NCBI RefSeq assembly: GCF_011045215.1
Contig: NZ_CP049201.1
Length of the DNA: 64,000 nt
Reading direction: 5' to 3' (one strand)
From: Escherichia coli
Lineage (GTDB): Bacteria > Pseudomonadota > Gammaproteobacteria > Enterobacterales > Enterobacteriaceae
This document shows, piece after piece, positions 9,464 through 61,990 of this stretch. The first letter of the stretch is position 1. Every line of letters starts with the position of its first letter. The notes under the pieces were generated by a model. It saw only the letters and a list, made by a program, of their open reading frames with translations, did no database searches and was not told the origin of the DNA. The translations under genes were made by a program, and so were the position numbers.

Positions 9464-9755
9464 TTTTTTTTAACTCTCACGCTTACCCTGAATATTCAGG
9501 GTAAGCAGTTTAGCTGCAATATATTAGTAAAGCTTATTACTGAGTTTGCGAATAATAAAAAAAAGCAGTCTATATAATATCTCGATATTATTTTATTTAT
9601 ATTCATGCGTTGCATATGAAAGTTTATGCACCACAGCGAATATCTCTCCATTCTTAGTGATCTACCTCACCTTTTAAACGCGCTTGCCGAATTTTGTTAT
9701 TTACTCTGACGAAAAATTGTCACGATACACGCAAGTTTTTCACAGGCGGCGACTC
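9464..9755 (+). promoter_or_regulatory. AT-rich eut operon upstream control region (expected EutR-dependent promoter)
   Basis: 292-bp AT-rich non-coding stretch directly upstream of eutS; contains 26-bp perfect palindrome at 9481-9506; promoter assignment is from established knowledge of eut regulation, not a mapped site. Confidence 0.4.
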
Positions 9756-18679: not shown

Positions 18680-20079
18680 ACACTCGCCAGCTACTGAGCG
18701 TCGGTATCGATATCGGCACTACCACCACCCAGGTGATTTTCTCCCACCTGGAACTGGTTAACCGTGCGGCGGTGTCGCAGGTGCCGCGCTACGAATTCAT
18801 CAAACGCGAAATTAGCTGGCAAAGCCCGGTGTTCTTTACCCCTGTCGATAAACAGGGTGATTTAAAAGAAGCGGAACTGAAATCGCTGATTTTAGAGCAA
18901 TATCAGGCTGCGGGCATTGCACCGGAAAGCGTTGATTCTGGTGCCATCATCATCACCGGTGAAAGCGCGAAAACCCGCAATGCTCGCCCGGCGGTGATGG
19001 CGCTCTCTCAGTCGCTGGGCGATTTTGTCGTTGCCAGCGCCGGGCCGCACCTCGAATCCGTGATCGCCGGTCACGGAGCCGGGGCACAAACCCTTTCTGA
19101 ACAACGGCTGTGTCGGGTACTGAATATCGACATCGGCGGTGGCACCGCGAACTACGCCCTGTTCGATGCCGGAAAAATCAGCGGCACTGCCTGCCTCAAC
19201 GTCGGTGGTCGCCTGCTGGAAACCGACAGCCAGGGGCGCGTGGTTTACGCTCATAAACCGGGGCAGATGATTGTGGATGAGTGCTTCGGCGCAGGCACCG
19301 ACGCCCGTTCGCTGACCGGCGCGCAGCTGGTGCAGGTTACCCGGCGGATGGCAGAGCTGATTGTCGAAGTGATTGACGGAACGCTCTCGCCGCTCGCGCA
19401 GGCATTGATGCAAACCGGTTTGCTGCCCGCAGGTGTTACGCCCGAAATCATTACGCTTTCTGGCGGCGTGGGCGAATGTTATCGCCACCAGCCCGCCGAC
19501 CCGTTCTGTTTTGCCGATATTGGCCCGCTTCTGGCAACGGCGCTGCATGACCATCCGCGCCTGCGTGAGATGAACGTGCAGTTTCCGGCGCAAACCGTGC
19601 GTGCCACGGTGATTGGCGCGGGGGCACATACCCTTTCGCTCTCTGGCAGCACAATCTGGCTTGAGGGCGTACAACTGCCGCTGCGCAATTTGCCGGTGGC
19701 GATCCCGATTGATGAAACGGATCTGGTGAGTGCCTGGCAACAGGCGCTGATTCAACTGGATCTTGATCCCAAAACTGACGCGTACGTGCTGGCGCTTCCC
19801 GCCTCGCTGCCTGTGCGTTACGCCGCGGTACTGACGGTCATCAACGCGTTGGTCGATTTCGTCGCGCGTTTTCCGAATCCGCATCCCCTGCTGGTGGTGG
19901 CCGGGCAGGACTTTGGTAAAGCTCTGGGCATGTTGTTGCGCCCACAGCTACAACAACTCCCGTTGGCAGTCATTGACGAAGTGATTGTCCGCGCGGGGGA
20001 CTATATCGACATTGGTACGCCTCTTTTTGGCGGATCGGTTGTGCCGGTGACGGTGAAATCACTCGCATTTCCTTCCTGA
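18676..20079 (+). CDS. eutA: Ethanolamine ammonia-lyase reactivase EutA
   Basis: 467-aa ORF, 4-nt overlap with eutH; eut operon synteny; followed by the inserted element. Confidence 0.9.
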   Translation: MNTRQLLSVGIDIGTTTTQVIFSHLELVNRAAVSQVPRYEFIKREISWQSPVFFTPVDKQGDLKEAELKSLILEQYQAAGIAPESVDSGAIIITGESAKTRNARPAVMALSQSLGDFVVASAGPHLESVIAGHGAGAQTLSEQRLCRVLNIDIGGGTANYALFDAGKISGTACLNVGGRLLETDSQGRVVYAHKPGQMIVDECFGAGTDARSLTGAQLVQVTRRMAELIVEVIDGTLSPLAQALMQTGLLPAGVTPEIITLSGGVGECYRHQPADPFCFADIGPLLATALHDHPRLREMNVQFPAQTVRATVIGAGAHTLSLSGSTIWLEGVQLPLRNLPVAIPIDETDLVSAWQQALIQLDLDPKTDAYVLALPASLPVRYAAVLTVINALVDFVARFPNPHPLLVVAGQDFGKALGMLLRPQLQQLPLAVIDEVIVRAGDYIDIGTPLFGGSVVPVTVKSLAFPS

Positions 20080-20172
20080 ATACTGTAGTTATCAGGCGTG
20101 GCGCTGGGTTGCGGGGTGTTAGTGGGATTATATCCGGCTGTGTATCCGGTCGGGGTGATTGGTCTGTATAGC

Positions 20173-20194
20173 AAAACCCGGCGCGGGGCCGGGT
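20173..20194 (-). terminator. Intrinsic terminator (minus-strand orientation)
   Basis: On minus strand reads ACCCGGCCCCGCGCCGGGTTTT: GC stem CCCGGC/GCCGGG followed by U-run, 7 nt after stop of the 20201-20761 gene; identical copy at 21822-21843. Confidence 0.6.
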
Positions 20195-20200
20195 GAACTA

Positions 20201-20761
20201 TCATTCAGGGAACAAGTTGATTTGAAGCAAACTGCCAATGTATTTACCAGTGCTTTTAATTTTTCGCTTTGATGGCTTACACGAATTCAGGTTGACACCA
20301 GCCTGGCTAGATATTGGCTTGTATTGCCGCTCCGCCAGTACGATCAGGTCTGCCGCGTCTTTTAGCTTTCCATCGTTAGCCAGTTCCAATGCTCGATCCG
20401 CCATTTGCCCGCATTGTTGAATCAGCTTAAGTTGCGATACCTCCAGTCGCAATTGCTGGATTCGTTCTACCACTTTCGCCCTAATGCGCTTAGTTTCACG
20501 CATTCCCATTCTTAATGCCTGGTTGCCAGTAAGTGAGTAAACCTCTTTTTCTTTCCTGAAGTTTGCGGCTTTACCGTCAGCTTGGACGCGCATTTTATGC
20601 GCTTCCAAGAATTCGCCCTCCAATTCATCCCTGATCTTCGCGTTGAATCTGTCGTTCTTGAGTTCATTTAACCCTTCCGCCTTGCGGATCTGGTTGATTA
20701 ACTCCAACAATTCATCACTGCGGATACGCCACTCGCTATCAACCTGTACCAAGTCAAACAT
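20201..20761 (-). CDS. Hypothetical phage protein (186 aa from ATG with GGGAG RBS; coiled-coil, possibly regulatory)
   Basis: ORF with good RBS upstream of internal ATG at 20761 (track start 20854 is TTG); no confidently recognised domain. Confidence 0.55.
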   Translation of the reverse strand: MFDLVQVDSEWRIRSDELLELINQIRKAEGLNELKNDRFNAKIRDELEGEFLEAHKMRVQADGKAANFRKEKEVYSLTGNQALRMGMRETKRIRAKVVERIQQLRLEVSQLKLIQQCGQMADRALELANDGKLKDAADLIVLAERQYKPISSQAGVNLNSCKPSKRKIKSTGKYIGSLLQINLFPE

Positions 20762-20924
20762 GTTGTTGCTCCCGTTTTGCTGCCATAGGGCAACGGCTCG
20801 CCAGCCTTTATCACCTCCTTTAGTTGTTGCGATTCTTAACTGAATGGTTATCAAAACGCTGCGTTAATATCATTGATATGTATCAAATTTGTTTTGTGAC
20901 GCGACAATGCCTTGTGAATATCAA

Positions 20925-20949
20925 TAAAAAACCCAGCGCTATGGCTGGG
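20925..20949 (-). terminator. Intrinsic terminator (minus-strand orientation)
   Basis: Minus strand CCCAGCcatagcGCTGGG followed by UUUUUU, 45 nt downstream of stop of 20995-21723 gene. Confidence 0.5.
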
Positions 20950-20994
20950 CTTCTCTTGATGGCTGGTTTTGTAGCTAATCGTTGGCTTTAAGGG

Positions 20995-21723
20995 TTAAGC
21001 AACAATATTAATCCCGCTCCTTGTCGCTGCCTCTTTGGCAATTTTCCCCTCGTCCTCCAGTTTAGCTAACGCCTTGTACATCCAGTGGCGGCCCGGTGCG
21101 CCATGCAGCTTGCCATCTTTGCCGATCTTACCGAACGCATGTAACGCCAAATCGTCGATAGTCCCCTTGTATCCGCCTTGCTCCTTAAGCCATTGCTCAA
21201 GCTGTTCTACTTTGAATTTTGCCGGACGTCCGCCAGCCGCTTTTTGTTGTTTAGCTGGTTCTTCTGCAATATCGCTTTTGTTGTTTAAGTCCGTCATGAC
21301 TGGTTCTCCTACAATAGCGTCGCCCTTGGTCTCGATTTGTTGATTAACTGGTTTGTCTACAATATCGATTTTGTTGTTTAGCTGGTTTTTCAACATATCA
21401 ATCTCAGCCTTTAGCGCCTCGTTTTCTCTGGCTAGTTCTTCGCAACGCTTGATAAATTTTTGTTCCATGCCGTCCGGGCTATCAACGTGCGCCGTACCCA
21501 TTACGATCTTCCCGTTGCTATCGAAGATGACAGCTTGCCAACCGACTGCGGCGAGCATTTTAAACACATCATCAGCGGTCTTGTTTGTTGTATCGCGACG
21601 CCCTTTAAACTTGTGGCTAGCAGCGCCTTTGCCTTTGAAGCCCATTGCCTCAGCGACATCTTGCCGCGTCATCTTGCGAGCGCGCTTGTTCATGCCTAAC
21701 TCAACCCAATCCATGTATTCCAT
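20995..21723 (-). CDS. Hypothetical phage protein with internal tandem peptide repeats (242 aa)
   Basis: ORF with GAGGT RBS; DNA and protein contain imperfect tandem repeats (LNNKIDIVDKPVNQQ / LNNKSDIAEEPAKQQ); basic N-terminal region possibly DNA-binding. Confidence 0.6.
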   Translation of the reverse strand: MEYMDWVELGMNKRARKMTRQDVAEAMGFKGKGAASHKFKGRRDTTNKTADDVFKMLAAVGWQAVIFDSNGKIVMGTAHVDSPDGMEQKFIKRCEELARENEALKAEIDMLKNQLNNKIDIVDKPVNQQIETKGDAIVGEPVMTDLNNKSDIAEEPAKQQKAAGGRPAKFKVEQLEQWLKEQGGYKGTIDDLALHAFGKIGKDGKLHGAPGRHWMYKALAKLEDEGKIAKEAATRSGINIVA

Positions 21724-21821
21724 ACATTACCTCATTTTGTCGCTAAACGTTTTGCTTTCTAATTTATCAACAAAAAAGCGGGTGATGGTAGCCGCTTTGA
21801 TGGGGAAGTTGACAGGGATCA

Positions 21822-21843
21822 AAAACCCGGCGCGGGGCCGGGT
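21822..21843 (-). terminator. Intrinsic terminator (minus-strand orientation), identical copy of 20173-20194
   Basis: Same 22-bp sequence aaaacccggcgcggggccgggt; 18 nt downstream of stop of AlpA-like gene 21861-22091. Confidence 0.6.
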
Positions 21844-21860
21844 ATTAGCAAGTTAGATGA

Positions 21861-22091
21861 TTACTGGGTATCGCTGTCAGAAAGTAGTCCAATTGATTTA
21901 AAGAATTTCATCACATCCTGATAGCGATACATGACGCCCCGCCCGGTTCCCAGCACATCAACAGGGTCGGGGAATGGAGTTCCGTTCTGTTCCCATTTCT
22001 TACGCCACGAATAAAACGTTCCCCTGCTAATTCCGCCCAGCATCCGGCAGATGGCAGGGCGGCTAAGAAGGATTACTTCATTTTTATCCAT
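21861..22091 (-). CDS. AlpA-family phage transcriptional regulator / excisionase-like HTH protein (76 aa)
   Basis: Motif LSRPAICRMLGGISRGTFYSWRKK...FPDPV typical of AlpA/Xis-type HTH; GGGAGA RBS. Confidence 0.6.
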   Translation of the reverse strand: MDKNEVILLSRPAICRMLGGISRGTFYSWRKKWEQNGTPFPDPVDVLGTGRGVMYRYQDVMKFFKSIGLLSDSDTQ

Positions 22092-22110
22092 TGTTTAATC
22101 TCCCGTGTGT

Positions 22111-22299
22111 TTATTTTGCGTAGATTAAGGCAAATGCTCTTTTGGCTTTGCTTAGTTCGTATTCGCGTTTTTCTATGATTGCCATCAGTTCTTGTGCGGT
22201 GGCTGGCACGCCCGCTCTTATCAGCGCAATCTTAGTATCCATAGCGCACACTCTTTCACGCACCATATCGAAGATAATTTCCGCTCTATCGTGTTTCAT
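22111..22299 (-). CDS. Small hypothetical protein (62 aa)
   Basis: ORF with strong GAGGTGA RBS 5 nt upstream of ATG; 19 bp upstream of AlpA-like gene, likely co-transcribed. Confidence 0.5.
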   Translation of the reverse strand: MKHDRAEIIFDMVRERVCAMDTKIALIRAGVPATAQELMAIIEKREYELSKAKRAFALIYAK

Positions 22300-22648
22300 G
22301 ATTTCACCTCATATTTGTTGCTAAACCTTGTAAACCCTTGTTTGACTACAAAATACACCTGGTTAAGCGACTGATAAAATGATTTAGGTCAATTTATTGG
22401 TTGATGATTTATGTCTGATTGGATTTGTCTACAAATGGCAGGTTAGTCAACAAATGATGAAACCAGGGAATGGCGGTTATAATGTCAGCGGGGATTGTGA
22501 GAAAGGCCCGGGTAGGTTGCTAACTGCCTGGGCCTTTATTTTTGGCGCGTGTACGTGAAATCTGGAAAATTTGCAGGGTAGTTGTTGAGGGATTTTTCGC
22601 GTAGGAGCGTGAAGGGTCCGCCAGTCATCGCCCTGACGTAGCGGTGAA

Positions 22649-23050
22649 TTACTTGCGAGGCTCACCCATCGGCCAGGCACCTTCATTGCGACGATAACCA
22701 ATCCGGTACTCTTCCGGCAGCGGCAAGCCCTGCTCACGATATGGACGCAGATCGAAGCCAAAAACAGGATCGTCGTCGTAGGCGAGGAATAGCCCGGCAG
22801 GCTCTGCCACGCGTTCGATAATCAGTTCCCCATCTTCAACGAAGAAGATCAGATTATCGCGAAAGTCCGTTACCTCACTGACGTGATAACATTCGGCATG
22901 TGCGTCCAGCCAGGCTTCTCGGTATTCCTGAATCTCGGCTTCTGACCATGTTGAAACAGGACGCTCCCAAATTCCCAGGCTGGATTTGCCCTGGCGGGAG
23001 AATAATTTTGCCTCTTTGCTCTGCTCTGGTTTTCTGTTTAAAAAGCTCAT
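22649..23050 (-). CDS. Hypothetical protein (133 aa)
   Basis: ORF with AAGGAGAA RBS; no recognised domain. Confidence 0.55.
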   Translation of the reverse strand: MSFLNRKPEQSKEAKLFSRQGKSSLGIWERPVSTWSEAEIQEYREAWLDAHAECYHVSEVTDFRDNLIFFVEDGELIIERVAEPAGLFLAYDDDPVFGFDLRPYREQGLPLPEEYRIGYRRNEGAWPMGEPRK

Positions 23051-23186
23051 TATTCTTCTCCTTTGAACGGATTGTTCTTGCTCTCTAATAACTTAGCGCG
23101 ACCCAGTAACGTCCGGGCAAGCGCCTCCGCCTTCCTTAGCCTAAGCCCTGCGTCTTCTGCGTCCAGATCTACATTCCTGATAGCCT

Positions 23187-23450
23187 CTACAGCCTGCTCC
23201 GCTGCGTCCGGGCGTGAATCCACTTAAATATGCCGATATGCTCACGAAAGTCTGGATGCTCATATTGCCAGCGGCAGATTGTTCTGAAGCTCGGCATGTC
23301 AGGCATGTTGCCAATCTCTCTGAGACTATGGCCTTCAGCTACCAGCAAGCAGATTTCTTCAGCGATAGCGACCCCATACTTAGCGCTTTTTCTGCTTAAA
23401 CTTGTGACATCAACAGGTAAGTTATTGATTTCTTTATCATCACCCTTCAT
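23187..23450 (-). CDS. Small HTH protein resembling the DNA-binding domain of phage terminase small subunits (87 aa)
   Basis: Motif AEGHSLREIGNMPDMPSFRTICRWQYEHPDFRE resembles TerS-type HTH; GGGGGTAA RBS; family assignment is from memory and tentative. Confidence 0.4.
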   Translation of the reverse strand: MKGDDKEINNLPVDVTSLSRKSAKYGVAIAEEICLLVAEGHSLREIGNMPDMPSFRTICRWQYEHPDFREHIGIFKWIHARTQRSRL

Positions 23451-23525
23451 AATTACCCCCGAATTGATAGCGAATTGATAGCGAATTACCCCGAATTACC
23501 CCCGAATTACCCCCGAATCACCATC
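23451..23525. repeat. Tandem array of about 6.5 copies of an 11-bp unit (AATTACCCC(C)G x4 and AATTGATAGCG x2)
   Basis: Directly visible: aattaccccc g aattgatagc g aattgatagc g aattacccc g aattaccccc g aattaccccc g aatcaccatc, exactly filling the gap between the 93-aa gene stop and the 87-aa gene start. Confidence 0.85.
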
Positions 23526-23527
23526 AT

Positions 23528-23809
23528 TTAACCCTCGCCTACGTCTGCGTCGATGCTTGCTAACTGGCTGTGTAGATCGCGTTCAATCATTTTTACCTTT
23601 TTCACAAAATCCCTTTCCTCGGCGGTGGCGGGCGCGCCCTGGGCTATGTTTTTCGTGAGGTCGTGGAAAGTGCCGAAAACATAAAGGGAGAACAGCCTTA
23701 ATTGTTGCCGCTTCATTGGCAAATCACTGTTGCTATGTTTGATCTCAGCGACGCCTTTCGAAATAACACGGGCCATCCCATGACAAATTCTTAACGTAAG
23801 CGCAGACAT
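23528..23809 (-). CDS. Hypothetical protein (93 aa)
   Basis: ORF with GGGGAG RBS; no recognised domain. Confidence 0.5.
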   Translation of the reverse strand: MSALTLRICHGMARVISKGVAEIKHSNSDLPMKRQQLRLFSLYVFGTFHDLTKNIAQGAPATAEERDFVKKVKMIERDLHSQLASIDADVGEG

Positions 23810-23930
23810 GATATTTACTCCCCGACTGGTATAATGAACGTGGTTTTAAACGTTGCTATTTGCTAACCATTTAATCTGTTAACTCAATTTCGCATTGTTG
23901 GCCCGGCACGAACACCGGGCTTTTCTTTAC

Positions 23931-24272
23931 CTATTCGAAATAGCTTCCAATATCCGGTGTCCGGGTATCAGTTTTCCGGGTCGGCTCGAAGTACGATTCC
24001 AGATCCGGCGTTTTCGGCCCACGCTGGGCGTTGGCGGCGGGTTGCTTTTCTTCTGGCTGTTCCGGCTGTTTACTACCAAATCGGCGCTCCAGTTGGTCCA
24101 TCAGCACTACCATCATTTCCTGGACCAGCTTTTCATCGGCTTTATCAAGGTTCTCCAATACCATCGCCATCCCTTTGCGGAATTTAAGCTCAGCGTCGTC
24201 CGGTTCCGGTGCTGATTCGTTTGCTTTAACTGCCAGGGCGATCCGGCGTTTTGCTTCATCCAAAAAATTCAT
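23931..24272 (-). CDS. Hypothetical acidic protein ending in repeated SYFE motif (113 aa)
   Basis: ORF with GGGGGAA RBS overlapping stop of upstream gene; C-terminus ...DLESYFEPTRKTDTRTPDIGSYFE. Confidence 0.5.
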   Translation of the reverse strand: MNFLDEAKRRIALAVKANESAPEPDDAELKFRKGMAMVLENLDKADEKLVQEMMVVLMDQLERRFGSKQPEQPEEKQPAANAQRGPKTPDLESYFEPTRKTDTRTPDIGSYFE

Positions 24273-24277
24273 TTTGT

Positions 24278-24721
24278 TTATTCCCCCATGTGGAAATAGT
24301 CATCTAAGCGGCGATTAAACTCGTCGCTGCCATCGAAATATTCACGGATACTTTTATTGACCAGATCATCACCGTCGAAATACTGGCGCGTGAAATCGTC
24401 CAATTCCCCATCGAAGTATTGACGTGTGAAATCGTCTAATTCCCCTTCAAAATATTGACGCGCATCAGGCGCTCTGTTTGGCGCTGTAGCAATCTCAGAT
24501 TGATTGCCCTGTAACTTATCGACGTTTGCTAAATACACGCCCAGTGAGCTGTTTGTTCCCATTACCGCAAGCATTTTCCGGCGATCTGCCATGTTCGGCG
24601 CGAGCGATGATAATTGAGCTTTAATTTTGTCCACTTCCTGATTAACAATACGGTCAATCAGTGGTTGATTCGTGCGAATAATTTCCTGTGCCAACTGGCG
24701 AATATATTCTTTGCGTGTCAT
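24278..24721 (-). CDS. Hypothetical protein with C-terminal tandem RQYF(D/E)GELDDFT repeats (147 aa)
   Basis: ORF with GGAGAT RBS; encoded by about 3.5 tandem 36-bp DNA repeats near 24330-24465. Confidence 0.55.
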   Translation of the reverse strand: MTRKEYIRQLAQEIIRTNQPLIDRIVNQEVDKIKAQLSSLAPNMADRRKMLAVMGTNSSLGVYLANVDKLQGNQSEIATAPNRAPDARQYFEGELDDFTRQYFDGELDDFTRQYFDGDDLVNKSIREYFDGSDEFNRRLDDYFHMGE

Positions 24722-24739
24722 TTCTTATCTCCGTTCATC

Positions 24740-25123
24740 TCATTTCTGTAAAAAACCCATACCGTGGCCCAGGCGATTTGAAATTTTCCCGGCAAGCATC
24801 CGGCGAATATGTTTTTCGTTGATGATGTCGTGAGTGACCGGATCTTCACCTTTCATACATTCCGGCATCTGGTCAAACAATACGGAAGCGCCTTCATCAA
24901 TAATCTCAGTTAAGACTGCTGGCAGCATATTAATGATGCGTTCTGCTTCGTCGTTCATTGCTTTATCGAACGCTTTTTTATCCATTGCTTCGGCGGATGG
25001 TTTGTAATTGTCGCCAGTCAGGTTAAGGTAAGTGTTGTTTGGGTGATACATGGCATTCACTCCTTTTACTTTGATTGTTGCGATTTCTTTGTTTTTGTTA
25101 ATTGTGGTGCCTTTGACTTTCAT
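24740..25123 (-). CDS. Hypothetical protein (127 aa)
   Basis: ATG overlaps stop of HNH gene (ATGA), suggesting translational coupling; no recognised domain. Confidence 0.5.
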   Translation of the reverse strand: MKVKGTTINKNKEIATIKVKGVNAMYHPNNTYLNLTGDNYKPSAEAMDKKAFDKAMNDEAERIINMLPAVLTEIIDEGASVLFDQMPECMKGEDPVTHDIINEKHIRRMLAGKISNRLGHGMGFLQK

Positions 25124-25539
25124 GCTGCTTCTTCCTTCAATAATTGTGGCAATTTGCCTGTTAGTTCGATTTCTTCATTAATAGATGCAAGTAACTGTCT
25201 CAGTTTGCGATGTAATAGCTGGTGACGCTCTCTCGGCATTTTTACCAGGTTGCTTAAGCGGTTATTCTGCGGATCGTAGTCCCGGTGATGGATATCATAT
25301 TTTCGCTCATCGTAAACACCGTAGCACCATAACCAGGCAGCCTTTTCTATTGTCATGCAGGTACGTTTTCCGTTGCTTAAACAAATGGTTATACTCAGGT
25401 GACCGCGATGTTTTTCGTTTAAGCTGCCTTTAATTACCTGGCCTGTGCTGCGGTTGTGAAATAAACCAGTTTCAGGGTCGTAGTGATATTTCTGTCGTAA
25501 TATATCAACTGATAACCGTAGTCTTGTAAGATTGTCCAT
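25120..25539 (-). CDS. HNH homing-type endonuclease (139 aa)
   Basis: Motif YDIHHRDYDPQNNRLSNLVKMPRERHQ (HH...N...N...H) typical of phage HNH nucleases; GAGGTAG RBS. Confidence 0.7.
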   Translation of the reverse strand: MDNLTRLRLSVDILRQKYHYDPETGLFHNRSTGQVIKGSLNEKHRGHLSITICLSNGKRTCMTIEKAAWLWCYGVYDERKYDIHHRDYDPQNNRLSNLVKMPRERHQLLHRKLRQLLASINEEIELTGKLPQLLKEEAA

Positions 25540-25571
25540 GATGTTCTACCTCAATGTGATTGCTGTGTTAA

Positions 25572-25757
25572 TTATCTTTCTTCTTGTGGCCTATTCAGCC
25601 AGGCCTCGATCTCGCTACGCCAGAATAATAAACGACAATTTCGCGGCGTAAATGGTTGGGGTATTGTCTTATCTTTTAATAGCCATCTTCGAATCGTTCT
25701 TGTTGATACCCCCGCTATTAATGCGAAAGCTCGCAGATCTATAACTTCATCTCTCAT
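25572..25757 (-). CDS. AlpA-like HTH regulator (61 aa from ATG with GAGGT RBS)
   Basis: Sequence LIAGVSTRTIRRWLLKDKTIPQPF...WRSEIEAWL matches AlpA/Xis-type HTH pattern; track ORF start 25862 is a TTG extension. Confidence 0.55.
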   Translation of the reverse strand: MRDEVIDLRAFALIAGVSTRTIRRWLLKDKTIPQPFTPRNCRLLFWRSEIEAWLNRPQEER

Positions 25758-26537
25758 GTTCTTACCTCGATTAAAAAGGACCGCCCCCAGGGAAAGAAGA
25801 AAGAGGAAAGAGGAAAGAGGAAAAACTTCCTGGAGGCGGGTAATTCGGATTCCTTGAATCAATATCCCATGTGATACTTAATATTATAAAGGGCGGCGGG
25901 CTATGTCGCTATTTTTGCCATAGTGTGACACCATTAATTTATTAACAAAAAGTGCTATTTATTAAATCTTTTTTCGGCAGGTGCAAGAAAAATAATTGCG
26001 ACACGGTAGGGTAGCGGGCGATAATAATCATGTAAGGAGTAGCCACCTTACGCCTCCAAATGTGATCGATAAAAATAATAGTCTCAATTCTTTCTCCCGC
26101 TTCTCGGCGGTTTTTTTGCCTGCAATCACACATCAAAAAAACACATCGAATTGATATGCCTTTAAAACGCAATATAACGCATTTTGACGGCCTTAATTTT
26201 TGCCTATCCACTCGGAAGCGTAAGCCTGTTTTGATTCGTCTGGCGTGGAATGGTGCGGCGGTAATATCAGATCTCAGCGTTCTGTGTGGTGGGATGGAAT
26301 AGCCTGGCAGGATCTGCGTGTGATTTCATTCATCCAACCTTGGATGAATGGTCCGATCTGGTCAGTAGTCCGGCACAAATAAAAAGCGCCTGCGGGCGTA
26401 GCAGACGCTTTGTGTACAGGCTTATCAGTACGGGATGTGCACGAATGATTATACCACCCTCAGAAAAACGTTTGCTTTTGCACTTAAACGGATAAGTGGT
26501 ATTTCTTGGTCTTCATTGGTTTTAGCTCACCATAGGC

Positions 26538-26765
26538 TCATTTAGGTGCGCCCCTGTCGATAATTCGGTACATGTTCTCGGTATATCTCCCGTTAATCAC
26601 CGTTCTGGTAACAACAATCACACCGTTTTCCTCCAGAAAGGCAATGGCCCGCTTCACTCCCTGGCGGCTTACACCGGATAGCTGCGCCAGCCTGTCAATG
26701 GAGATGTTGTATTTGTCCGGCTGGCTTGTCAGGATCTGGAATACCGCTCGTGCTGTTTTCGTCAT
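26538..26765 (-). CDS. Small winged-helix DNA-binding protein (75 aa), candidate regulator
   Basis: Sequence ISIDRLAQLSGVSRQGVKRAIAFLEENGVIV has HTH character; divergent from the plus-strand cassette; RBS weak. Confidence 0.45.
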   Translation of the reverse strand: MTKTARAVFQILTSQPDKYNISIDRLAQLSGVSRQGVKRAIAFLEENGVIVVTRTVINGRYTENMYRIIDRGAPK

Positions 26766-27037
26766 GGCAAAAACTCATTGAAATTGGATACCCTTAGAAC
26801 GCTCTCAAACGCTCCGTAATGCGATGAGAATTTTACCTAAGCAAGTGTAGCTCTTTATTAGTTTTATGATGCCGTAGGCCGATAGAAGGTGCGCTCTCTG
26901 AAGTTTCATTGTCTATCAGTGGTGGGTAATGCTGCCTTTACTATTGGCGTCAAGAAAATCACTGGTGTAGATTGGGCGAATAGTTTACTATTCAAACAAG
27001 GCACAATGGCCTTAGCGGATTGATGTCAGGAGATACC

Positions 27038-27385
27038 ATGTCAAAAATAGTTACTTTGTTTGCGACTAAGCGAGAAGGGAAATCCCTTTCTGTGCGCACT
27101 CGTAAGCCAAAAGCTATGACTGGCTTGCGTAAAACAAATCGTCTGACGCATCTTGACGCGTTAGCGTATCGACTAGGATACCAGTTGGTGCGCGGTAAAA
27201 GTGTCATGTTTCGCTACACTGCTACTCTCGATCACGAAGAAAACAAAGTGATGAATGCGGCCTCGCCTATGGCTGTACCACGAGTAAAAAAAATGACGTT
27301 CACACAAGCGTGTGATTTATCAAAAGATTTATTCGATTCACGAGAAGAACGCTTAAAGAGTGTAAGCTTTGATGGTCCAGAATGA
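27038..27385 (+). CDS. Basic 115-aa protein, candidate partner (antitoxin or regulator) of downstream YafO-like gene
   Basis: ATG at 27038 preceded by AGGAGA RBS; stop overlaps start of next gene by 14 nt; basic N-terminus and acidic C-terminus; no recognised family. Confidence 0.5.
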   Translation: MSKIVTLFATKREGKSLSVRTRKPKAMTGLRKTNRLTHLDALAYRLGYQLVRGKSVMFRYTATLDHEENKVMNAASPMAVPRVKKMTFTQACDLSKDLFDSREERLKSVSFDGPE

Positions 27386-27887
27386 ATTTATTGGTAAGGT
27401 CTACAGTGATAACAAGTTTAAAACAAACGATGAATTAAAGAGCTTTAAGGATTCGTTTATTTATCATTGGAGATATGGACATCATCCTGATTTTGGAAAG
27501 GATACTCTTTTCCATAAACCCCCGTGTGTATATCCTATCCATTTACGTAAAGTCCATGTAAATATTGGTCTTTATACCAATCAGTACGGCTATAGCGGGA
27601 CAGAACAATGCTGGGATGACTGGTCTACTGGTCGTTATGGTCCCGGTGGTTTCGAAAAAGTTACCCCTACATCTGATGCTTATCTTATATACGCTGTATG
27701 TAAAAATAGAAATGCTGGCGTGTTAGACTTCTGGTTTCCTCCCGCACACAAAAACGCTGAGTTCGAATCCTCTGTACAGTTTGTGGCTGAGATGGCTGAT
27801 AAGTTTTATGAGTCTATCAAGGCGGACCCGATGCCGCGCGATCAGAATCCTTGGCATACGGGGTATATAGTTAAAAAACCAGCCTGA
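27372..27887 (+). CDS. YafO-family toxin-like protein (171 aa)
   Basis: Motifs F-I-Y-H-W-R-Y-G...PDFGKDTLF, YPIHLRKVHVN and SDAYLIYAV line up with recalled YafO motifs (FISYKRDG...PDIFGRDALY, ERVAHIHLAN, DEAHLVYCQG); similarity judged from memory, not computed. Confidence 0.45.
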   Translation: MVQNEFIGKVYSDNKFKTNDELKSFKDSFIYHWRYGHHPDFGKDTLFHKPPCVYPIHLRKVHVNIGLYTNQYGYSGTEQCWDDWSTGRYGPGGFEKVTPTSDAYLIYAVCKNRNAGVLDFWFPPAHKNAEFESSVQFVAEMADKFYESIKADPMPRDQNPWHTGYIVKKPA

Positions 27888-28438
27888 TCCACGCAATACT
27901 GATTGTTTTTGGCCTTGTATGGTGTGGTCTGATTTGAGGCAAAATTATTTAATCCCTTAAAAAACTAACTTCAAAAGACTAAAACCAGGGGGATGGTCCC
28001 TCTCGCTCCGCTCCAGGTACCATCCCTGTCGGGATGGGTTTATTGTAGAGTTAAAATTAATTACTCACATCGTCACACCTTGCGAAAGTTTTGCTCAATT
28101 ATCATTCAAACATAGCACAAAAAATATTCGATTTAGTTAGTGTGCACTGACTTTTTTATCAATTTACTTTCATTCGAAAGTCATGGGTTAAATATTAATC
28201 ATCTGGCTGTGGCACGCATGGATTCACCGAGGGTATTTTGGACCATTTGGTCAAAATTCATAAGTACATGATTTCATGGTGATTTATTTTTCTGTATCTT
28301 GCTTTCATTCGAAAGTGGAAACGAAGAATTGGCAATTTATTGATTCAGATCATTGACATTGCATATTTGTGGCGGTTGTCACGGTTGTTTTTTGAGCGCT
28401 TCAACCGTCGATATTGAGTATAAACCCGGCCTTATAGT

Positions 28439-29644
28439 TCACGGTTCAAGTGGATTACCGTCACCAGCCAATATTGAATCAATAGCGTCGGCGTAATCCT
28501 GCATCATTGCTCGCCGTTGCTTCAGGTAGGCCGCCTGGTTATAAACGCCGCGCACACCTTTCGGGACGTGGGCCAATTGGATTTCGATCCAGTCTGGTGA
28601 GTATCTGCCAGACTCATTAAGCGCCGTTGAAAAGGTGGTCCGCCAGCCATGACCAGTGGCAATGGATTTATAGCCGATCCTCTCAAGCGCCTTCAGTATC
28701 GCGCTGGCTGAAAGTGGCTTATCCATGAATCGACCAGGGAAGACGAAAGCACTGTATCCGCTCCTTGTAAACTGGTCCTGTAATAGCTCCACCGCCTGCC
28801 GTGATAGCGGGACCACATGCGGGCGGCGGGCCTTCATGACTTCAGCGGGCAATGTGATTGTTGCGTCCTCCAGGTTTATCCATTCCCAACGGCACAAACG
28901 CAGTTCTGCGGTCCTTAATGCCGTTAATATAAGCAAACGTATTGCCGTCTGAATCTGGACGCTCCCGGCCCTCTCAAGGGCTTTGTAGAAGGCCGGAATT
29001 TCACTAATCGGTATCCACGCGTTGTGACCAGGTCGGCGGGCCTTCAGTGCCGTATCAAGATCTGCAACCGGATTCCTCGTTACCAGTTCGGTGATAACGG
29101 CAAACTTGAAGATCTCACCGATGCGCTGGCGTAGCTTGCGGGCCTGCTCCGGTGCGGTACGTTCTTTCTTCTGGAGTAATGCCAGCACGTCACGGGCGGT
29201 TATATCGACAATCGACCGCTTGCCAAGTACCGGATAGACGTCTTTTTCTAGGGCCGATCTGACCTGTTTTGCATAGGATTCCGACCACCCTCCAACCCTA
29301 GTAGCAAACCAGTCTTCCGCCACCTTCTTAAATCCTGCCGCCATGTTGAGCGCATCAATGGCTTTTTCCTTGCGGGCTTGTTCCACTGGGTTAATTCCAT
29401 TGGCAATAAGGGATCTGCTCTCCGTGGCGCGCCTGCGTGCTTCTTTGAGTGTGATTAGCGGGTAAACACCAATAGCCTGCAAAAACTCTCGTTTATTCAA
29501 CCAATACCTGAATCGCCAGTATTTCGAACCGTTGGGATGCACCAGCAAAAACAGCCCCGGCGTCAGTGAATCGGTGAGTTTATAGGGCTTGTCCTGCGGC
29601 TGTGCGGCGTCTATGGCCTTTGCTGTGAGTGGTGTCTTGCTCAA
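28439..29644 (-). CDS. intZ: Tyrosine-type site-specific integrase (prophage integrase)
   Basis: 401-aa ORF with phage integrase features (N-terminal arm-binding domain, C-terminal catalytic region with ...HGWRTT...); sits at the element end beside eutB as intZ does in E. coli K-12; start appears to be TTG. Confidence 0.8.
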   Translation of the reverse strand: MSKTPLTAKAIDAAQPQDKPYKLTDSLTPGLFLLVHPNGSKYWRFRYWLNKREFLQAIGVYPLITLKEARRRATESRSLIANGINPVEQARKEKAIDALNMAAGFKKVAEDWFATRVGGWSESYAKQVRSALEKDVYPVLGKRSIVDITARDVLALLQKKERTAPEQARKLRQRIGEIFKFAVITELVTRNPVADLDTALKARRPGHNAWIPISEIPAFYKALERAGSVQIQTAIRLLILTALRTAELRLCRWEWINLEDATITLPAEVMKARRPHVVPLSRQAVELLQDQFTRSGYSAFVFPGRFMDKPLSASAILKALERIGYKSIATGHGWRTTFSTALNESGRYSPDWIEIQLAHVPKGVRGVYNQAAYLKQRRAMMQDYADAIDSILAGDGNPLEP

Positions 29645-29832
29645 AACCGGATACCTTGATTTAACGACTGGATAACCCCGATCATGTATCCGGCGCGTTC
29701 GGTTGCGTTCGGCAGGATAAGTAACGGGCGTATTAAGTGGAACACCTTACAGGACAAGGGCTAACGATGAAATAGAATTGTTTGCAGGCTGTGAGAAATG
29801 TTAATCGTCACTTCTTCCTGAGGGAACGACTT

Positions 29833-31194
29833 ATGAAACTAAAGACCACATTGTTCGGCAATGTATATCAGTTTAAGGATGTAAAAGAGGTGCTGGCTAA
29901 AGCCAACGAACTGCGTTCGGGGGATGTGCTGGCGGGCGTCGCAGCGGCAAGCTCACAGGAGCGCGTGGCGGCAAAGCAGGTGTTGTCGGAAATGACCGTA
30001 GCGGACATCCGCAATAATCCGGTGATTGCCTATGAAGATGACTGCGTGACGCGGCTGATTCAGGACGATGTTAACGAAACGGCCTACAACCAGATTAAAA
30101 ACTGGAGCATCAGCGAACTGCGTGAGTATGTGCTGAGCGATGAAACCAGCGTGGACGACATTGCCTTTACCCGCAAAGGGCTGACCTCGGAAGTGGTCGC
30201 GGCGGTAGCGAAGATTTGCTCCAACGCGGACCTGATCTACGGCGCGAAGAAAATGCCGGTAATCAAAAAGGCCAATACCACCATCGGTATTCCGGGCACC
30301 TTCAGCGCCCGTTTGCAGCCAAATGACACTCGTGACGACGTGCAAAGTATCGCCGCGCAAATCTACGAAGGGCTTTCCTTCGGGGTGGGCGATGCGGTGA
30401 TCGGCGTTAACCCGGTGACTGACGACGTGGAAAACTTAAGCCGCGTGCTGGATACCATTTATGGCGTGATCGACAAATTCAACATCCCAACTCAGGGCTG
30501 CGTACTGGCGCACGTCACCACTCAGATCGAAGCGATTCGTCGTGGCGCACCAGGCGGGCTGATTTTCCAGAGTATCTGTGGCAGTGAAAAAGGGCTGAAA
30601 GAGTTTGGCGTGGAACTTGCGATGCTCGACGAAGCGCGCGCAGTGGGTGCAGAGTTCAACCGTATCGCCGGGGAAAACTGCCTCTACTTCGAAACCGGAC
30701 AAGGTTCAGCGCTATCCGCTGGCGCTAACTTCGGCGCAGACCAGGTGACGATGGAAGCACGTAACTATGGGCTGGCGCGTCATTACGATCCGTTTATCGT
30801 CAACACCGTGGTCGGCTTTATTGGGCCGGAGTATCTCTACAACGACCGCCAGATTATCCGTGCGGGCTTAGAAGATCACTTTATGGGCAAGCTGAGCGGC
30901 ATCTCTATGGGCTGTGACTGCTGTTACACCAACCACGCTGACGCTGACCAGAACCTCAACGAAAACCTGATGATCCTGCTCGCCACCGCAGGCTGCAACT
31001 ACATCATGGGGATGCCGTTGGGCGATGACATCATGCTCAACTACCAGACCACGGCCTTCCACGACACTGCCACTGTGCGTCAGTTACTCAACCTGCGCCC
31101 GTCACCGGAGTTTGAACGCTGGCTGGAAAGCATGGGCATTATGGCAAACGGTCGCTTGACCAAACGGGCGGGCGATCCGTCACTGTTCTTCTGA
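29833..31194 (+). CDS. eutB: Ethanolamine ammonia-lyase large subunit
   Basis: 453-aa product from ATG at 29833 (MKLKTTLFGNVYQFKDVKEV...); EutB family. Confidence 0.9.
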   Translation: MKLKTTLFGNVYQFKDVKEVLAKANELRSGDVLAGVAAASSQERVAAKQVLSEMTVADIRNNPVIAYEDDCVTRLIQDDVNETAYNQIKNWSISELREYVLSDETSVDDIAFTRKGLTSEVVAAVAKICSNADLIYGAKKMPVIKKANTTIGIPGTFSARLQPNDTRDDVQSIAAQIYEGLSFGVGDAVIGVNPVTDDVENLSRVLDTIYGVIDKFNIPTQGCVLAHVTTQIEAIRRGAPGGLIFQSICGSEKGLKEFGVELAMLDEARAVGAEFNRIAGENCLYFETGQGSALSAGANFGADQVTMEARNYGLARHYDPFIVNTVVGFIGPEYLYNDRQIIRAGLEDHFMGKLSGISMGCDCCYTNHADADQNLNENLMILLATAGCNYIMGMPLGDDIMLNYQTTAFHDTATVRQLLNLRPSPEFERWLESMGIMANGRLTKRAGDPSLFF

Positions 31195-32111: not shown

Positions 32112-32771
32112 ATGCCAGCTTTAGATTTGATTCGACCGTCTGTCACCGCTATGCGGGTGATTGCCTCCGTTAACGCCGATTTTGCGCGTGAACTGAAATT
32201 GCCGCCGCATATTCGTAGCCTCGGTCTGATTTCTGCCGACTCCGATGACGTCACCTACATTGCCGCTGATGAAGCGACCAAGCAGGCGATGGTGGAAGTG
32301 GTGTATGGCCGCTCGCTGTATGCGGGCGCTGCACACGGCCCGTCACCGACTGCCGGTGAAGTGCTGATTATGCTTGGTGGGCCAAACCCGGCGGAAGTGC
32401 GTGCAGGTCTGGATGCGATGGTTGCGCATATTGAAAATGGCGCAGCTTTCCAGTGGGCTAATGACGCGCAAGATACGGCATTCCTGGCACATGTAGTTTC
32501 GCGTACCGGTTCTTATCTCTCATCAACCGCCGGGATCACGCTTGGCGATCCGATGGCGTATCTGGTGGCACCGCCGCTGGAAGCGACCTATGGCATTGAT
32601 GCAGCCCTGAAGTCTGCCGACGTACAGCTGGTGACCTATGTCCCGCCACCGTCTGAAACCAACTACTCGGCAGCATTTTTAACCGGTAGCCAGGCAGCGT
32701 GTAAAGCAGCCTGTAACGCCTTTACCGATGCAGTGCTGGAAATCGCGCGTAATCCAATCCAGCGTGCGTAA
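32112..32771 (+). CDS. eutL: BMC shell protein EutL (tandem BMC domain)
   Basis: 219-aa ORF; eut operon synteny. Confidence 0.9.
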
Positions 32772-32783
32772 CGGAGGTTGCCG

Positions 32784-33284
32784 ATGATCAATGCACTGGG
32801 ATTGCTGGAAGTGGACGGCATGGTCGCTGCGATAGATGCAGCGGATGCCATGCTCAAAGCAGCTAACGTTCGTCTGCTCAGTCACGAAGTGCTTGACCCT
32901 GGTCGCTTAACGCTGGTGGTGGAAGGCGATCTGGCGGCGTGTCGTGCGGCGCTGGACGCAGGTTGTGCTGCCGCGATGCGTACCGGGCGTGTCATCAGCC
33001 GTAAGGAGATCGGTCGGCCAGACGATGACACCCAGTGGCTGGTTACTGGCTTTAACCGCCAGCCGAAGCAACCCGTAAAGGAACCCGACGCGCCAGTTAT
33101 CGTCGCGGAATCTGCTGACGAGTTGTTGGCGCTGTTAACATCAGTACGTCAGGGAATGACGGCAGGAGAAGTGGCTGCCCACTTTGGCTGGCCGCTGGAA
33201 AAAGCCAGAAATGTGCTCGAACAGCTCTTTTCTGCCGGGACGTTACGTAAACGCAGTAGTCGTTATCGTCTCAAGCCCCATTAA
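32784..33284 (+). CDS. eutK: BMC shell protein EutK
   Basis: 166-aa product from ATG at 32784 (MINALGLLEVDGMVAA...); BMC domain plus C-terminal extension. Confidence 0.85.
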   Translation: MINALGLLEVDGMVAAIDAADAMLKAANVRLLSHEVLDPGRLTLVVEGDLAACRAALDAGCAAAMRTGRVISRKEIGRPDDDTQWLVTGFNRQPKQPVKEPDAPVIVAESADELLALLTSVRQGMTAGEVAAHFGWPLEKARNVLEQLFSAGTLRKRSSRYRLKPH

Positions 33285-33329
33285 CCTGTCGGAGGTGCCG
33301 GGTGTCCTACAACACCCGGCATTAACATC

Positions 33330-34382
33330 ATGAAAAAGACCCGTACAGCCAATTTGCACCATCTTTATCATGAACCCTTACCCGAAAACCTGAAGCTCAC
33401 GCCGAAGGTCGAAGTGGATAATGTTCATCAACGACAGACAACGGATGTCTATGAACATGCTTTGACGATTACCGCCTGGCAGCAGATTTACGATCAGCTG
33501 CATCCGGGCAAGTTTCATGGTGAATTTACGGAAATTCTACTCGATGATATTCAGGTTTTTCGTGAATACACCGGTCTGGCGCTGCGTCAGTCGTGTCTGG
33601 TCTGGCCGAACTCGTTCTGGTTTGGCATTCCGGCGACGCGCGGTGAGCAGGGATTTATCGGTTCGCAATGTCTGGGAAGCGCAGAAATAGCGACGCGCCC
33701 TGGTGGAACCGAGTTTGAATTAAGTACGCCGGACGATTACACGATCCTGGGCGTAGTGCTTTCTGAAGATGTCATCACCCGTCAGGCTAACTTTTTGCAT
33801 AATCCGGATCGGGTATTACATATGTTGCGTAGCCAGTCGGCGCTGGAAGTGAAAGAGCAGCATAAAGCCGCGCTGTGGGGCTTTGTCCAACAGGCGCTGG
33901 CGACGTTTTGCGAGAACCCGGAAAATCTTCATCAGCCTGCAGTGCGAAAAGTGCTGGGGGATAATTTGCTAATGGCGATGGGGGCGATGCTGGAAGAAGC
34001 GCAACCAATGGTGACGGCGGAAAGCATCAGTCATCAGAGTTACCGTAGATTACTTTCCCGCGCCCGTGAATATGTGCTGGAAAACATGTCCGAACCGGTG
34101 ACGGTGCTGGATTTGTGTAATCAACTGCATGTCAGCCGCCGCACGCTACAAAACGCGTTTCACGCTATTTTAGGCATTGGCCCAAACGCGTGGCTGAAAC
34201 GCATTCACCTGAACGCCGTACGCCGCGAACTGATAAGCCCGTGGTCGCAAAGCACAACGGTAAAAGACGCCGCCATGCAGTGGGGATTCTGGCATCTGGG
34301 GCAATTTGCCACGGATTACCAGCAGCTGTTTGCCGAGAAGCCGTCGTTGACGTTGCATCAGCGGATGCGGGAATGGGGGTGA
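33330..34382 (+). CDS. eutR: AraC-family transcriptional activator of the eut operon
   Basis: 350-aa ORF with C-terminal AraC-type HTH; last gene of eut cluster. Confidence 0.85.
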
Positions 34383-61715: not shown

Positions 61716-61775
61716 ATCGCAGATAGCAAAAAAGCGCCTTTAGGGCGCTTTTTTACATTGGTGGGTCGTGCAGGA
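61716..61775. repeat. Duplicated copy of the lysV 3-prime end plus its terminator (60-bp direct repeat; second copy at 61872-61931 is the native one)
   Basis: atcgcagatagcaaaaaagcgcctttagggcgcttttttacattggtgggtcgtgcagga occurs twice 156 bp apart; the last 17 nt are the tRNA-Lys acceptor/T-arm end. Confidence 0.75.
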
Positions 61776-61914
61776 TGACTCGCTTCGCTCGCCCTTCGGG
61801 CCGTCGCCGCGAGCGGCTCCGTTGTTTCGCTACGCTCAACTCAAACCTGCTGCAGGTTCGAATCTTTGAGTATCGCAGATAGCAAAAAAGCGCCTTTAGG
61901 GCGCTTTTTTACAT

Positions 61915-61990
61915 TGGTGGGTCGTGCAGGATTCGAACCTGCGACCAATTGATTAAAAGTCAACTGCTCTACCAACTGAGCTAACGACCC
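61915..61990 (-). tRNA. lysV: tRNA-Lys (anticodon UUU)
   Basis: Reverse complement gives GGGTCGTTAGCTCAGTTGGTAGAGCAGTTGACTTTTAATCAATTGGTCGCAGGTTCGAATCCTGCACGACCCACCA, 76 nt with CCA; last gene of val-val-val-lys tRNA operon. Confidence 0.9.

Follow-up and report, generated by a model that had tools for sequence, protein, structure and literature searches.

A conserved RNA hairpin between the Shine–Dalgarno sequence and the start codon of eutR suggests a split ribosome-binding site in enterobacteria

We found that the short region between eutK and eutR of Escherichia coli encodes an RNA hairpin that is conserved across enterobacteria, with a Shine–Dalgarno (SD) sequence directly at its 5′ foot and the eutR start codon beyond its 3′ foot. 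Most likely, it is a conserved RNA hairpin within the ribosome-binding site (RBS), a cellular case of a split RBS, joined by a second hairpin that occludes the start codon. EutR is the master activator of ethanolamine utilisation, and it also switches on virulence genes in EHEC and Salmonella. Because EutR and EutBC compete for adenosylcobalamin, the level of EutR must follow that of EutBC. The known control of eutR consists of two promoters and the sRNA MavR; to our knowledge, no control of eutR translation initiation has been described, and our search of the literature found no experiment on the eutR hairpin site.

The window, by which we mean the whole 64-kb stretch of E. coli DNA that was analysed, carries the eut locus in a K-12-like layout: eutA and eutB are split by a block of ∼9.7 kb, made up mostly of minus-strand ORFs and with a phage integrase (28439–29644) at its end, which matches the description of prophage CPZ-55, found between eutA and eutB in K-12-like strains (PMC7617246). 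A 331-nt query around the hairpin site matched 5416 of 5426 complete E. coli genomes, and the identities of eutK and eutR were given by the RefSeq annotation of the same DNA in more than 5380 of them. The first possible start of eutK is TTG at 32778, the likely one is ATG at 32784, and the gene ends with TAA at 33282–33284. After an intergenic region of 45 bp follows eutR, which encodes an AraC-type regulator (Pfam HTH_18/HTH_AraC) and has no in-frame start upstream of its ATG, back to the stop at 33282. The features on which the argument rests are:

32778..33284, plus strand: eutK coding sequence (ORF list; Pfam BMC and EutK_C; RefSeq annotation in E. coli)
33291..33295, plus strand: SD sequence GGAGG, 6 nt after the eutK stop and directly at the 5′ foot of hairpin 1
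33296..33305, plus strand: 5′ arm of hairpin 1, TGCCGGGTGT (perfect inverted repeat; pairing probability ∼1; covariation)
33306..33311, plus strand: loop of hairpin 1, CCTACA (6 nt; varies freely)
33312..33321, plus strand: 3′ arm of hairpin 1, ACACCCGGCA (perfect inverted repeat; covariation)
33322..33329, plus strand: spacer, TTAACATC (A/U-rich, without an SD; 8 nt in E. coli, 8–12 nt elsewhere), its final two bases shared with hairpin 2
33328..33339, plus strand: 5′ arm of predicted hairpin 2, TCATGAAAAAGA (start codon and codons 2–4; inverted repeat, RNAalifold consensus)
33330..34382, plus strand: eutR coding sequence, start ATG at 33330–33332 (ORF list, Pfam, RefSeq)
33362..33373, plus strand: 3′ arm of predicted hairpin 2, TCTTTATCATGA (within codons 11–15, CAT CTT TAT CAT GAA)

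The original prediction was of a perfect, GC-rich 8-bp hairpin, GCCGGGTG-tcctacaa-CACCCGGC, at 33297–33320, between the eutK stop (33282–84) and the eutR start (33330). The hairpin is indeed there, and it is both perfect and GC-rich; an inverted-repeat search, however, gave a stem of 10 bp closed by a 6-nt loop, and in RNA two further G-U pairs are possible. The gap to the start codon, given before as 10 nt, is in fact 8 nt from the 10-bp stem and 9 nt from the 8-bp one. Hairpin 1 alone has a ΔG of −18.6 kcal/mol. Its 76-nt context folds with a minimum free energy of −23.6 kcal/mol versus −15.5±3.0 kcal/mol for dinucleotide shuffles (z=−2.7), and only 4 of 200 shuffles fold as well. Perfect hairpins of at least 10 bp occur at 7 loci in the window, where 0.34 would be expected, and most of the others are A-run/T-run terminators. 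The pattern of hairpin 1 has a single match in the 64 kb even with 3 mismatches allowed, and its junction is found at a median of 1 place per E. coli genome, which led us to reject a REP-type or otherwise dispersed palindrome. A search of Rfam 15 at a permissive E-value returned no match at the gathering score; the best hits (CRISPR-DR8, CRISPR-DR29, nhaA-I and 5.8S) scored 15–16 bits against gathering scores of 37–42, that is, at chance level.

Hairpin 1 is, on comparative grounds, a selected RNA structure and more than a product of chance, because its pairing has been kept by compensatory changes while the sequence of the stem diverged. Junctions were collected from three sources: a scan with EutR of one genome for each species, which gave 63 loci; a metagenome scan that took the 3′ coding sequence of eutK as its key, and so did not depend on the presence of the hairpin; and contigs encoding EutR of intermediate identity. 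A common layout of stop codon, ∼6 nt, GGAG(G), hairpin, 8–12 nt and start codon was seen in Escherichia, Citrobacter, Klebsiella, Salmonella, Pseudocitrobacter, Pluralibacter, Phytobacter, Intestinirhabdus and further lineages, and persists down to ∼72% EutR identity. The inner stem differs by genus with its pairing kept (GGGTGT/ACACCC, GGGCGTT/AACGCCC, GGGGGCTTC/GAAGCTTCC, GGGAGCGT/ACGCTCCC, GGAAGTGC/GCGCTTCC and CGAATGCC/GGCATTCG), and one stem pair occurs as AU, GU, CG and UA. In a structural alignment of 32 distinct junctions, laid out with N-padding and fitted to hairpin 1, 93.2% of the cells held a standard pair, versus 34–49% when the partners were slid by 1–3 columns; compensatory double changes were found in 7 of 13 pairs, and none of 500 shuffles reached the observed covariation score. 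Since this layout was fitted to the hairpin, we also ran RNAalifold on 15 sequences aligned by MAFFT without any fitting; it predicted this helix too, and 6 of its pairs were compensated. Conservation, the lack of which was to count against the original prediction, was thus found among genera at the level of structure, compensatory changes included.

Within E. coli, 5361 of 5390 records match the 65-nt junction at 99% identity or more (a gap-counted difference at most), and the surrounding 331 nt fall short of 99% in 1464 records. Among the matches of at least 99% that were listed, 39 of 39 junctions were 100% identical; among the variants listed, the most divergent E. coli junction differed only in the loop and at a single 5′-flanking position close behind the stop codon. 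The loop also occurs within the species as CATATA and CGTACA.

The SD sequence at the foot of the hairpin is conserved as well. In E. coli the match to the 16S rRNA extends to GGAGGUG (33291–33297), and the linear distance from GGAGG to the eutR ATG is 34 nt, beyond the usual range (>15 nt). The duplex of the SD at the foot with the 16S 3′ end amounts to −10 to −10.8 kcal/mol in the main clade (at least 85% EutR identity), and that of GGAG in L190 and ESL0689 to −5.6 to −6.6 kcal/mol. The best duplex offered by the spacer lies between −0.9 and +0.4 kcal/mol in lineages of at least 77% EutR identity, L187/L088 excepted; read by eye, the spacers of E. coli (TTAACATC) and of the K. pneumoniae type (TTTAACGATT) likewise have no G-rich run. 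Thirteen taxa all share GGAG, although just 5 of the 90 four-fold degenerate sites of eutR (5.6%) are unchanged among them, and the motif has been kept while other intergenic bases changed (TAATGAACCGGAGA in ESL0689, TAATTAACTGGAGC in L190). The start of eutR of the K. pneumoniae type has been called from a TTG inside the hairpin loop (P0013, MPPALTIMKK...); that callers guided by SD distance choose the loop TTG implies that the real ATG has no SD nearby. The original prediction had offered three options: a stabilised end of the upstream transcript, a processing site, or an effect on eutR translation. We favour the last, because the only SD lies upstream at the hairpin foot and the spacer has none, with the correction that the hairpin would stand inside the RBS rather than before it.

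The geometry of SD, hairpin and AUG, computed with explicit rules, is nearly constant once the hairpin is folded. In 18 lineages, some with EutR as little as 72% identical, GGAG(G) ends 0–2 nt short of the 5′ foot, and the start codon lies 8–12 nt past the 3′ foot across lineages. Without folding, the SD and the AUG are 33–38 nt apart across 17 other lineages, with Intestinirhabdus at 86 nt; the folded spacing is 8 nt in E. coli and 8–13 nt elsewhere, mostly 8–11 nt. The hairpin of Intestinirhabdus alba has expanded to 77 nt (−47 kcal/mol) with feet, SD and spacer unchanged, giving a folded spacing of 9 nt. Adding the width of the helix to a folded 8–13 nt puts the spacing among the longest that work. 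The eutK stop, in turn, lies 6 nt before the SD in all lineages of at least 77% EutR identity. What the sequences show is the hairpin with its covariation, where the SD lies and how it is conserved, and a constant folded geometry. The bare geometry (GGAGG, a hairpin of at least 8 bp and a start codon 5–13 nt further on) would be expected 0.14 times per window by chance, so the weight of the argument rests on the phylogeny. The SD itself is predicted to be only partly accessible, with an unpaired probability of 0.05–0.7, and its two final G can form pairs with UU at the foot of the stem.

Two other candidate elements around the SD were rejected. A small helix, ACCU/AGGU, predicted in some species, where it would mask part of the SD, is broken without compensation in Klebsiella (ACCA) and Salmonella (ATCT). 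A mini-ORF from GTG at 33302 to TAA at 33325 (MSYNTRH*) has no equivalent start or stop in Salmonella and others. GGAGG would be ideally placed for it, and only 4 nt part its end from the eutR ATG, an arrangement that would hint at coupling through a leader peptide.

Several lineages depart from the common layout. In L187/L088 the upstream motif is degraded, from GGAGG to GAAAG, and an SD, GGTGGAG, with an anti-SD duplex of −6.4 kcal/mol, has newly arisen in the spacer between hairpin and ATG; the hairpin is kept at −21 to −23 kcal/mol. This apparent natural swap, in which an SD is lost upstream and one is gained downstream, points to GGAGG as the SD in use wherever the upstream motif is present. 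That these lineages keep the hairpin despite the downstream SD means that bridging is not the sole reason for its retention, and suggests that a second, SD-independent role is possible. L188, L189 and Yokenella (71–73% identity) show SD-like runs before the hairpin as well as after it, and the SD in use is ambiguous; together with L187/L088 they are the lineages whose spacer is not free of an SD-like run. In relatives that have no such hairpin (Buttiauxella, L191, Brenneria, Dickeya, Pectobacterium and Lonsdalea), AGGAG or GGAGG stands at a normal distance of 6–9 nt, and in Brenneria, Dickeya, Pectobacterium and Lonsdalea the gene upstream of eutR is a different one. Every hairpin-bearing lineage examined encodes EutK with EutK_C, but L191 has EutK_C without the hairpin, so the two do not strictly go together.

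The start codon itself is predicted to be held in a second hairpin, the arms of which are 12 nt long and form 11 of 12 pairs (92% complementary). The AUG has a predicted unpaired probability of 0.0, and opening the region would cost ∼10.3 kcal/mol, similar in size to the SD duplex. In a comparison of 14 taxa, codons 11–15, in which the 3′ arm lies, form the sole stretch of at least three codons in all of eutR that is free of synonymous change, against a background in which 25% of two-fold and ∼5% of four- and six-fold degenerate codons are invariant; codons 2–3, on the 5′ arm, are also invariant in these taxa. Single changes in hairpin 2 are mostly wobble-compatible (a GTG start in ESL0689, CGT in Entomohabitans, GGC in L190). 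The K. pneumoniae type and ESL0689 are without hairpin 2 and have kept hairpin 1 and the SD. We rejected an RNA thermometer, as the AUG keeps its predicted unpaired probability of 0.0 from 20 to 45 °C. In our reading of the predicted folds, initiation at eutR may be deliberately inefficient, leaning on a strong SD that is placed by structure.

With moderate confidence, we propose that hairpin 1 is the middle piece of a split, or non-contiguous, RBS of eutR; it would be an internal part of this site, because the SD abuts its 5′ foot and the 8-nt spacer contains none. In linear RNA, GGAGG, 34 nt from the AUG, would be too distant to serve it. Folding of the 26-nt hairpin would loop out the interval, so that the SD and the AUG are separated by 8 unpaired nucleotides and the width of the helix foot. 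The 30S subunit would then bind the SD, keep the hairpin folded on its surface and set the AUG in the P site. With the AUG held in the weaker hairpin 2, initiation would probably be inefficient and dependent on the strong SD, and a low rate of initiation would suit a regulator needed in small amounts. Ribosomes ending eutK may also pass to the eutR site, a hand-over that is plausible because the eutK stop lies only 6 nt before the SD. The junction combines the features that mark a split RBS: an SD too far away in linear terms, a stable hairpin in the interval, no SD at the canonical distance and a conserved structure. We infer from these that the ribosome uses GGAGG and that the hairpin enhances initiation rather than being tolerated by it. 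On the other side, many E. coli genes initiate without an SD, and the A/U-rich spacer and the AAA AAG codons could support such initiation at eutR; moreover, P2 transcripts would be without GGAGG if the P2 start falls 3′ of 33295.

An alternative that we consider unlikely, though the strongest of those weighed here, is that hairpin 1 is a barrier to mRNA decay or a processing boundary, blocking 3′-to-5′ exonucleases and/or flanking an RNase E site in the linker. Decay starting from eutR would then halt at the end of eutK and spare the structural eut mRNA, and the adjacency of the SD would be incidental or secondary. A stable, GC-rich intercistronic hairpin without a U-tract would suit this role, as would its retention in L187/L088, where the SD has moved downstream. 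Single-stranded A/U-rich linkers between stem-loops, such as 33322–27 here, are the classical setting of RNase E sites. The eutR transcript is an RNase E target (PMC8565329); the work on MavR in the same study deals with a 3′ portion of the eutR coding sequence rather than with the eutK–eutR junction. However, a decay barrier leaves unexplained both the fixed register, with the SD 0–2 nt from the 5′ foot and the ATG 8–12 nt from the 3′ foot, and the coupling of upstream SD loss to downstream SD gain, and we found no report of a 3′ end or cleavage at the junction. The two functions may nonetheless coexist: hairpin 1 may double as a 3′-exonuclease barrier for the upstream eut mRNA, which is compatible with a split site. 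We regard as rather improbable a purely negative element, in which hairpin 1, together with hairpin 2, crowds or occludes initiation, GGAGG goes unused, and eutR is translated by an SD-independent start or by re-initiation after eutK. The fully paired state predicted for the AUG, with its opening cost of ∼10.3 kcal/mol, the absence of any synonymous change in the arms of hairpin 2, and the low abundance of EutR with its weak constitutive promoter (PMC5821096) all agree with a negative element. It does not account, however, for the strict conservation of GGAG at the foot, for the SD swap in L187/L088, for the folded 77-nt hairpin with unchanged feet in Intestinirhabdus, or for the K. pneumoniae type and ESL0689, which are without hairpin 2 and yet keep hairpin 1 and the SD.

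Transcriptional roles fare worse. It is very unlikely that hairpin 1 is a terminator or attenuator lowering read-through from P1 into eutR. It is GC-rich and stands at a gene end, and in some genera 2–3 T follow the stem (GGTTTA in Klebsiella); in E. coli, however, the sequence that follows, ATTAACATC, has no U-tract, as had been noted, and a terminator scan of 32700–33600 on both strands called no terminator-like site. Furthermore, eutR mRNA rises 12.7–30-fold together with eutS and eutB in E. coli Nissle (PMC7617246), so that transcription passes through hairpin 1, and it is established for this operon that eutR is autoinduced from P1, the main promoter (PMC5821096). The hairpin is most likely a real but modest translational feature, and not a terminator. 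An action as DNA, either as a palindromic protein-binding site or as part of the P2 promoter, is to our mind extremely unlikely. The palindrome is perfect and lies in a 45-bp intergenic region, and a constitutive weak promoter, P2, is reported to precede eutR (PMC5821096). Yet pairing is conserved and the inner stem sequence is not, which is the signature of an RNA structure rather than of a sequence-specific operator; the hairpin has been able to expand to 77 nt; and a promoter consensus scan of 32700–33600 called no sigma-70-like site and did not locate P2. Hexamers resembling a −10 element that were picked by eye (TATCGT; AAAAAT in Citrobacter and Salmonella) were rejected as weak and not conserved in E. 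coli. We also give little credence to a regulated switch, in which the two-hairpin leader would be controlled by a trans-acting protein bound to hairpin 1. The candidate would be the C-terminal domain of EutK, a helix-turn-helix that resembles nucleic-acid-binding domains and whose function is not known (PMC5821096). If such binding were true, EutK outside microcompartment shells could feed back on EutR synthesis or tether the mRNA. The eutK gene ends 11 nt before the stem of hairpin 1.

If eutR does have a split RBS, EutR synthesis would hinge on an RNA fold, and mutations in the stem or in the SD could be used to tune EutR or to uncouple it from the operon. The site would show at work in a cell a mechanism otherwise known mainly from phage T4, and it would account for the misplacement of the eutR start by automatic annotation in some species. 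RBS calculators and start predictors that assume a linear SD–AUG spacing would misjudge eutR.

Among known intercistronic structures, Rho-independent terminators share with the eutR hairpin a GC-rich stem-loop at a gene end; the eutR hairpin differs in having no U-tract and in that the mRNA downstream of it is co-induced. REP-type intercistronic stem-loops, such as that of malE-malF, stabilise mRNA segments. The eutR hairpin, GC-rich, intercistronic and without a U-tract, is like them and could similarly stop 3′ exonucleases, leaving segments that differ in stability; unlike them, it is single-copy and stands in fixed register with an SD and a start codon. In the T4 genes e, soc, 49 and I-TevI, hairpins occlude the start codon or the SD (PMC3014915), and hairpin 2 of eutR would likewise pair the AUG in a local helix that must open for initiation. 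The differences are that the partner strand of hairpin 2 lies inside the coding sequence (codons 11–15) and that no relieving transcript or trigger is known.

A split site is found in E. coli itself at thrS, where a long hairpin stays folded on the 30S subunit, between the two segments that the subunit contacts (Sacerdot et al. 1998; PMC3936740). As proposed for eutR, the ribosome contacts two segments of RNA around a long hairpin without unfolding it. In thrS, however, the SD adjoins the AUG, and a single-stranded enhancer further upstream forms the distal part, whereas in eutR the distal part would be the SD itself; moreover, the thrS hairpin is the operator for ThrRS, and no repressor is known for eutR.

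The closest parallels are the split sites of phage T4 (Gold 1988; Nivinskas et al. 1999; Malys & Nivinskas 2009, as cited in PMC3014915 and PMC7297116). A hairpin cuts the distance between SD and AUG from 22 to 5 nt in gene 38 and from 27 to 11 nt in gene 25; mutations in the stems reduce translation, and the structure occurs in close T-even phages and is missing from distant ones (PMC3014915, PMC7297116). There are differences: eutR is a chromosomal regulatory gene of enterobacteria and not a phage gene, its hairpin is longer and more GC-rich (10–12 bp, −14 to −23 kcal/mol), and its AUG is predicted to be occluded by a second hairpin. The T4 sites are backed by mutations and probing, the proposed eutR site by sequence comparison and predicted folds. 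The likeness is nevertheless close, with the same order of SD, stable hairpin, short spacer and AUG in genes 38 and 25 as in eutR, and with a shortening from 34 to 8 nt in eutR to set beside those in T4. In both systems the site can lie at an intercistronic junction (26-25 in T4, eutK-eutR here), and in both the hairpin has been kept in close relatives, while distant ones have an ordinary SD.

The hairpin between the eutK stop and the eutR ATG (hairpin 1) has undergone a large expansion in Intestinirhabdus alba (locus L028, 1901-2003), where it reaches 77 nt, 30 bp and -47 kcal/mol. The enlargement is an insertion in the apical part; despite it, the SD (the GGAGG at the 5' foot of the hairpin), both hairpin feet and the spacer are all unchanged. 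At junctions of the K. pneumoniae type (L067 and its relatives), we noted that the EutR protein P0013 (MPPALTIMKK...) carries an annotated start 7 codons early, on a TTG in the loop of hairpin 1, as assigned by automatic annotation. P0013 is the representative of a 90%-identity cluster of 2937 member sequences, and the early start was read on that representative. This seems to be a systematic misplacement of the start that results from the distance of the SD.

A mini-ORF, GTG TCC TAC AAC ACC CGG CAT TAA (MSYNTRH*), occupies window 33302-33325; it starts within hairpin 1, 6 nt 3' of GGAGG, and stops 4 nt 5' of the eutR ATG. The mini-ORF is probably fortuitous, because it is not kept in Salmonella or in others. 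In P0001, a cluster of E. coli proteins derived from Logan, the mini-ORF is joined to EutR, apparently because of a 1-nt indel or an artefact of start calling.

The eutR start codon itself is paired in a second hairpin (hairpin 2), formed by the following arms:

33328-33339, 5' arm of hairpin 2
33362-33373, 3' arm of hairpin 2

Here codons 11-15 (CAT CTT TAT CAT GAA) pair with the start codon and codons 2-4. Synonymous change is absent from codons 11-15 among 14 taxa, the only such run of at least three codons in eutR. Hairpin 2 is missing from the K. pneumoniae-type sequences and from those of ESL0689. Directly 5' of the eutR ATG, nearly all genera carry GATC (for example, at loci L007, L015, L023 and L187), whereas E. 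coli has CATC (33326-33329); the last two bases of this tetranucleotide, TC, pair in hairpin 2. GATC at this position is a Dam site and is complementary to GAUC of the 16S 3' end.

Elsewhere in the window, we found two further perfect hairpins of at least 10 bp without A/T runs alongside:

9481-9506, perfect hairpin, GCTTACCCTGAATATTCAGGGTAAGC
26327-26350, perfect hairpin, CATTCATCCAACCTTGGATGAATG, within the prophage block, in a region without ORFs of at least 100 aa

A stretch of about 58 nt occurs twice in direct orientation (about 61718-61775 and 61874-61931), carrying the 3' end of tRNA-Lys together with a bidirectional terminator hairpin (AAAAAAGCGCCTTTAGGGCGCTTTTTT). The tRNA is truncated to its 3' end in the first copy, and the second copy belongs to an intact gene:

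61915-61990, minus strand, lysV, after three tRNA-Val genes

The repeat resembles a scar left by integration or duplication.

The eut operon is interrupted by about 9.7 kb between eutA and eutB (about 20080-29780), with ORFs mostly on the minus strand:

18676-20079, eutA
28439-29644, phage integrase (Pfam Phage_integrase, Arm-DNA-bind_3), at the end of the inserted block
29782-31194, eutB

In this strain eutBCLKR are therefore separated from P1, the main eut operon promoter. The insert matches the CPZ-55 prophage described in E. coli K-12 (PMC7617246).
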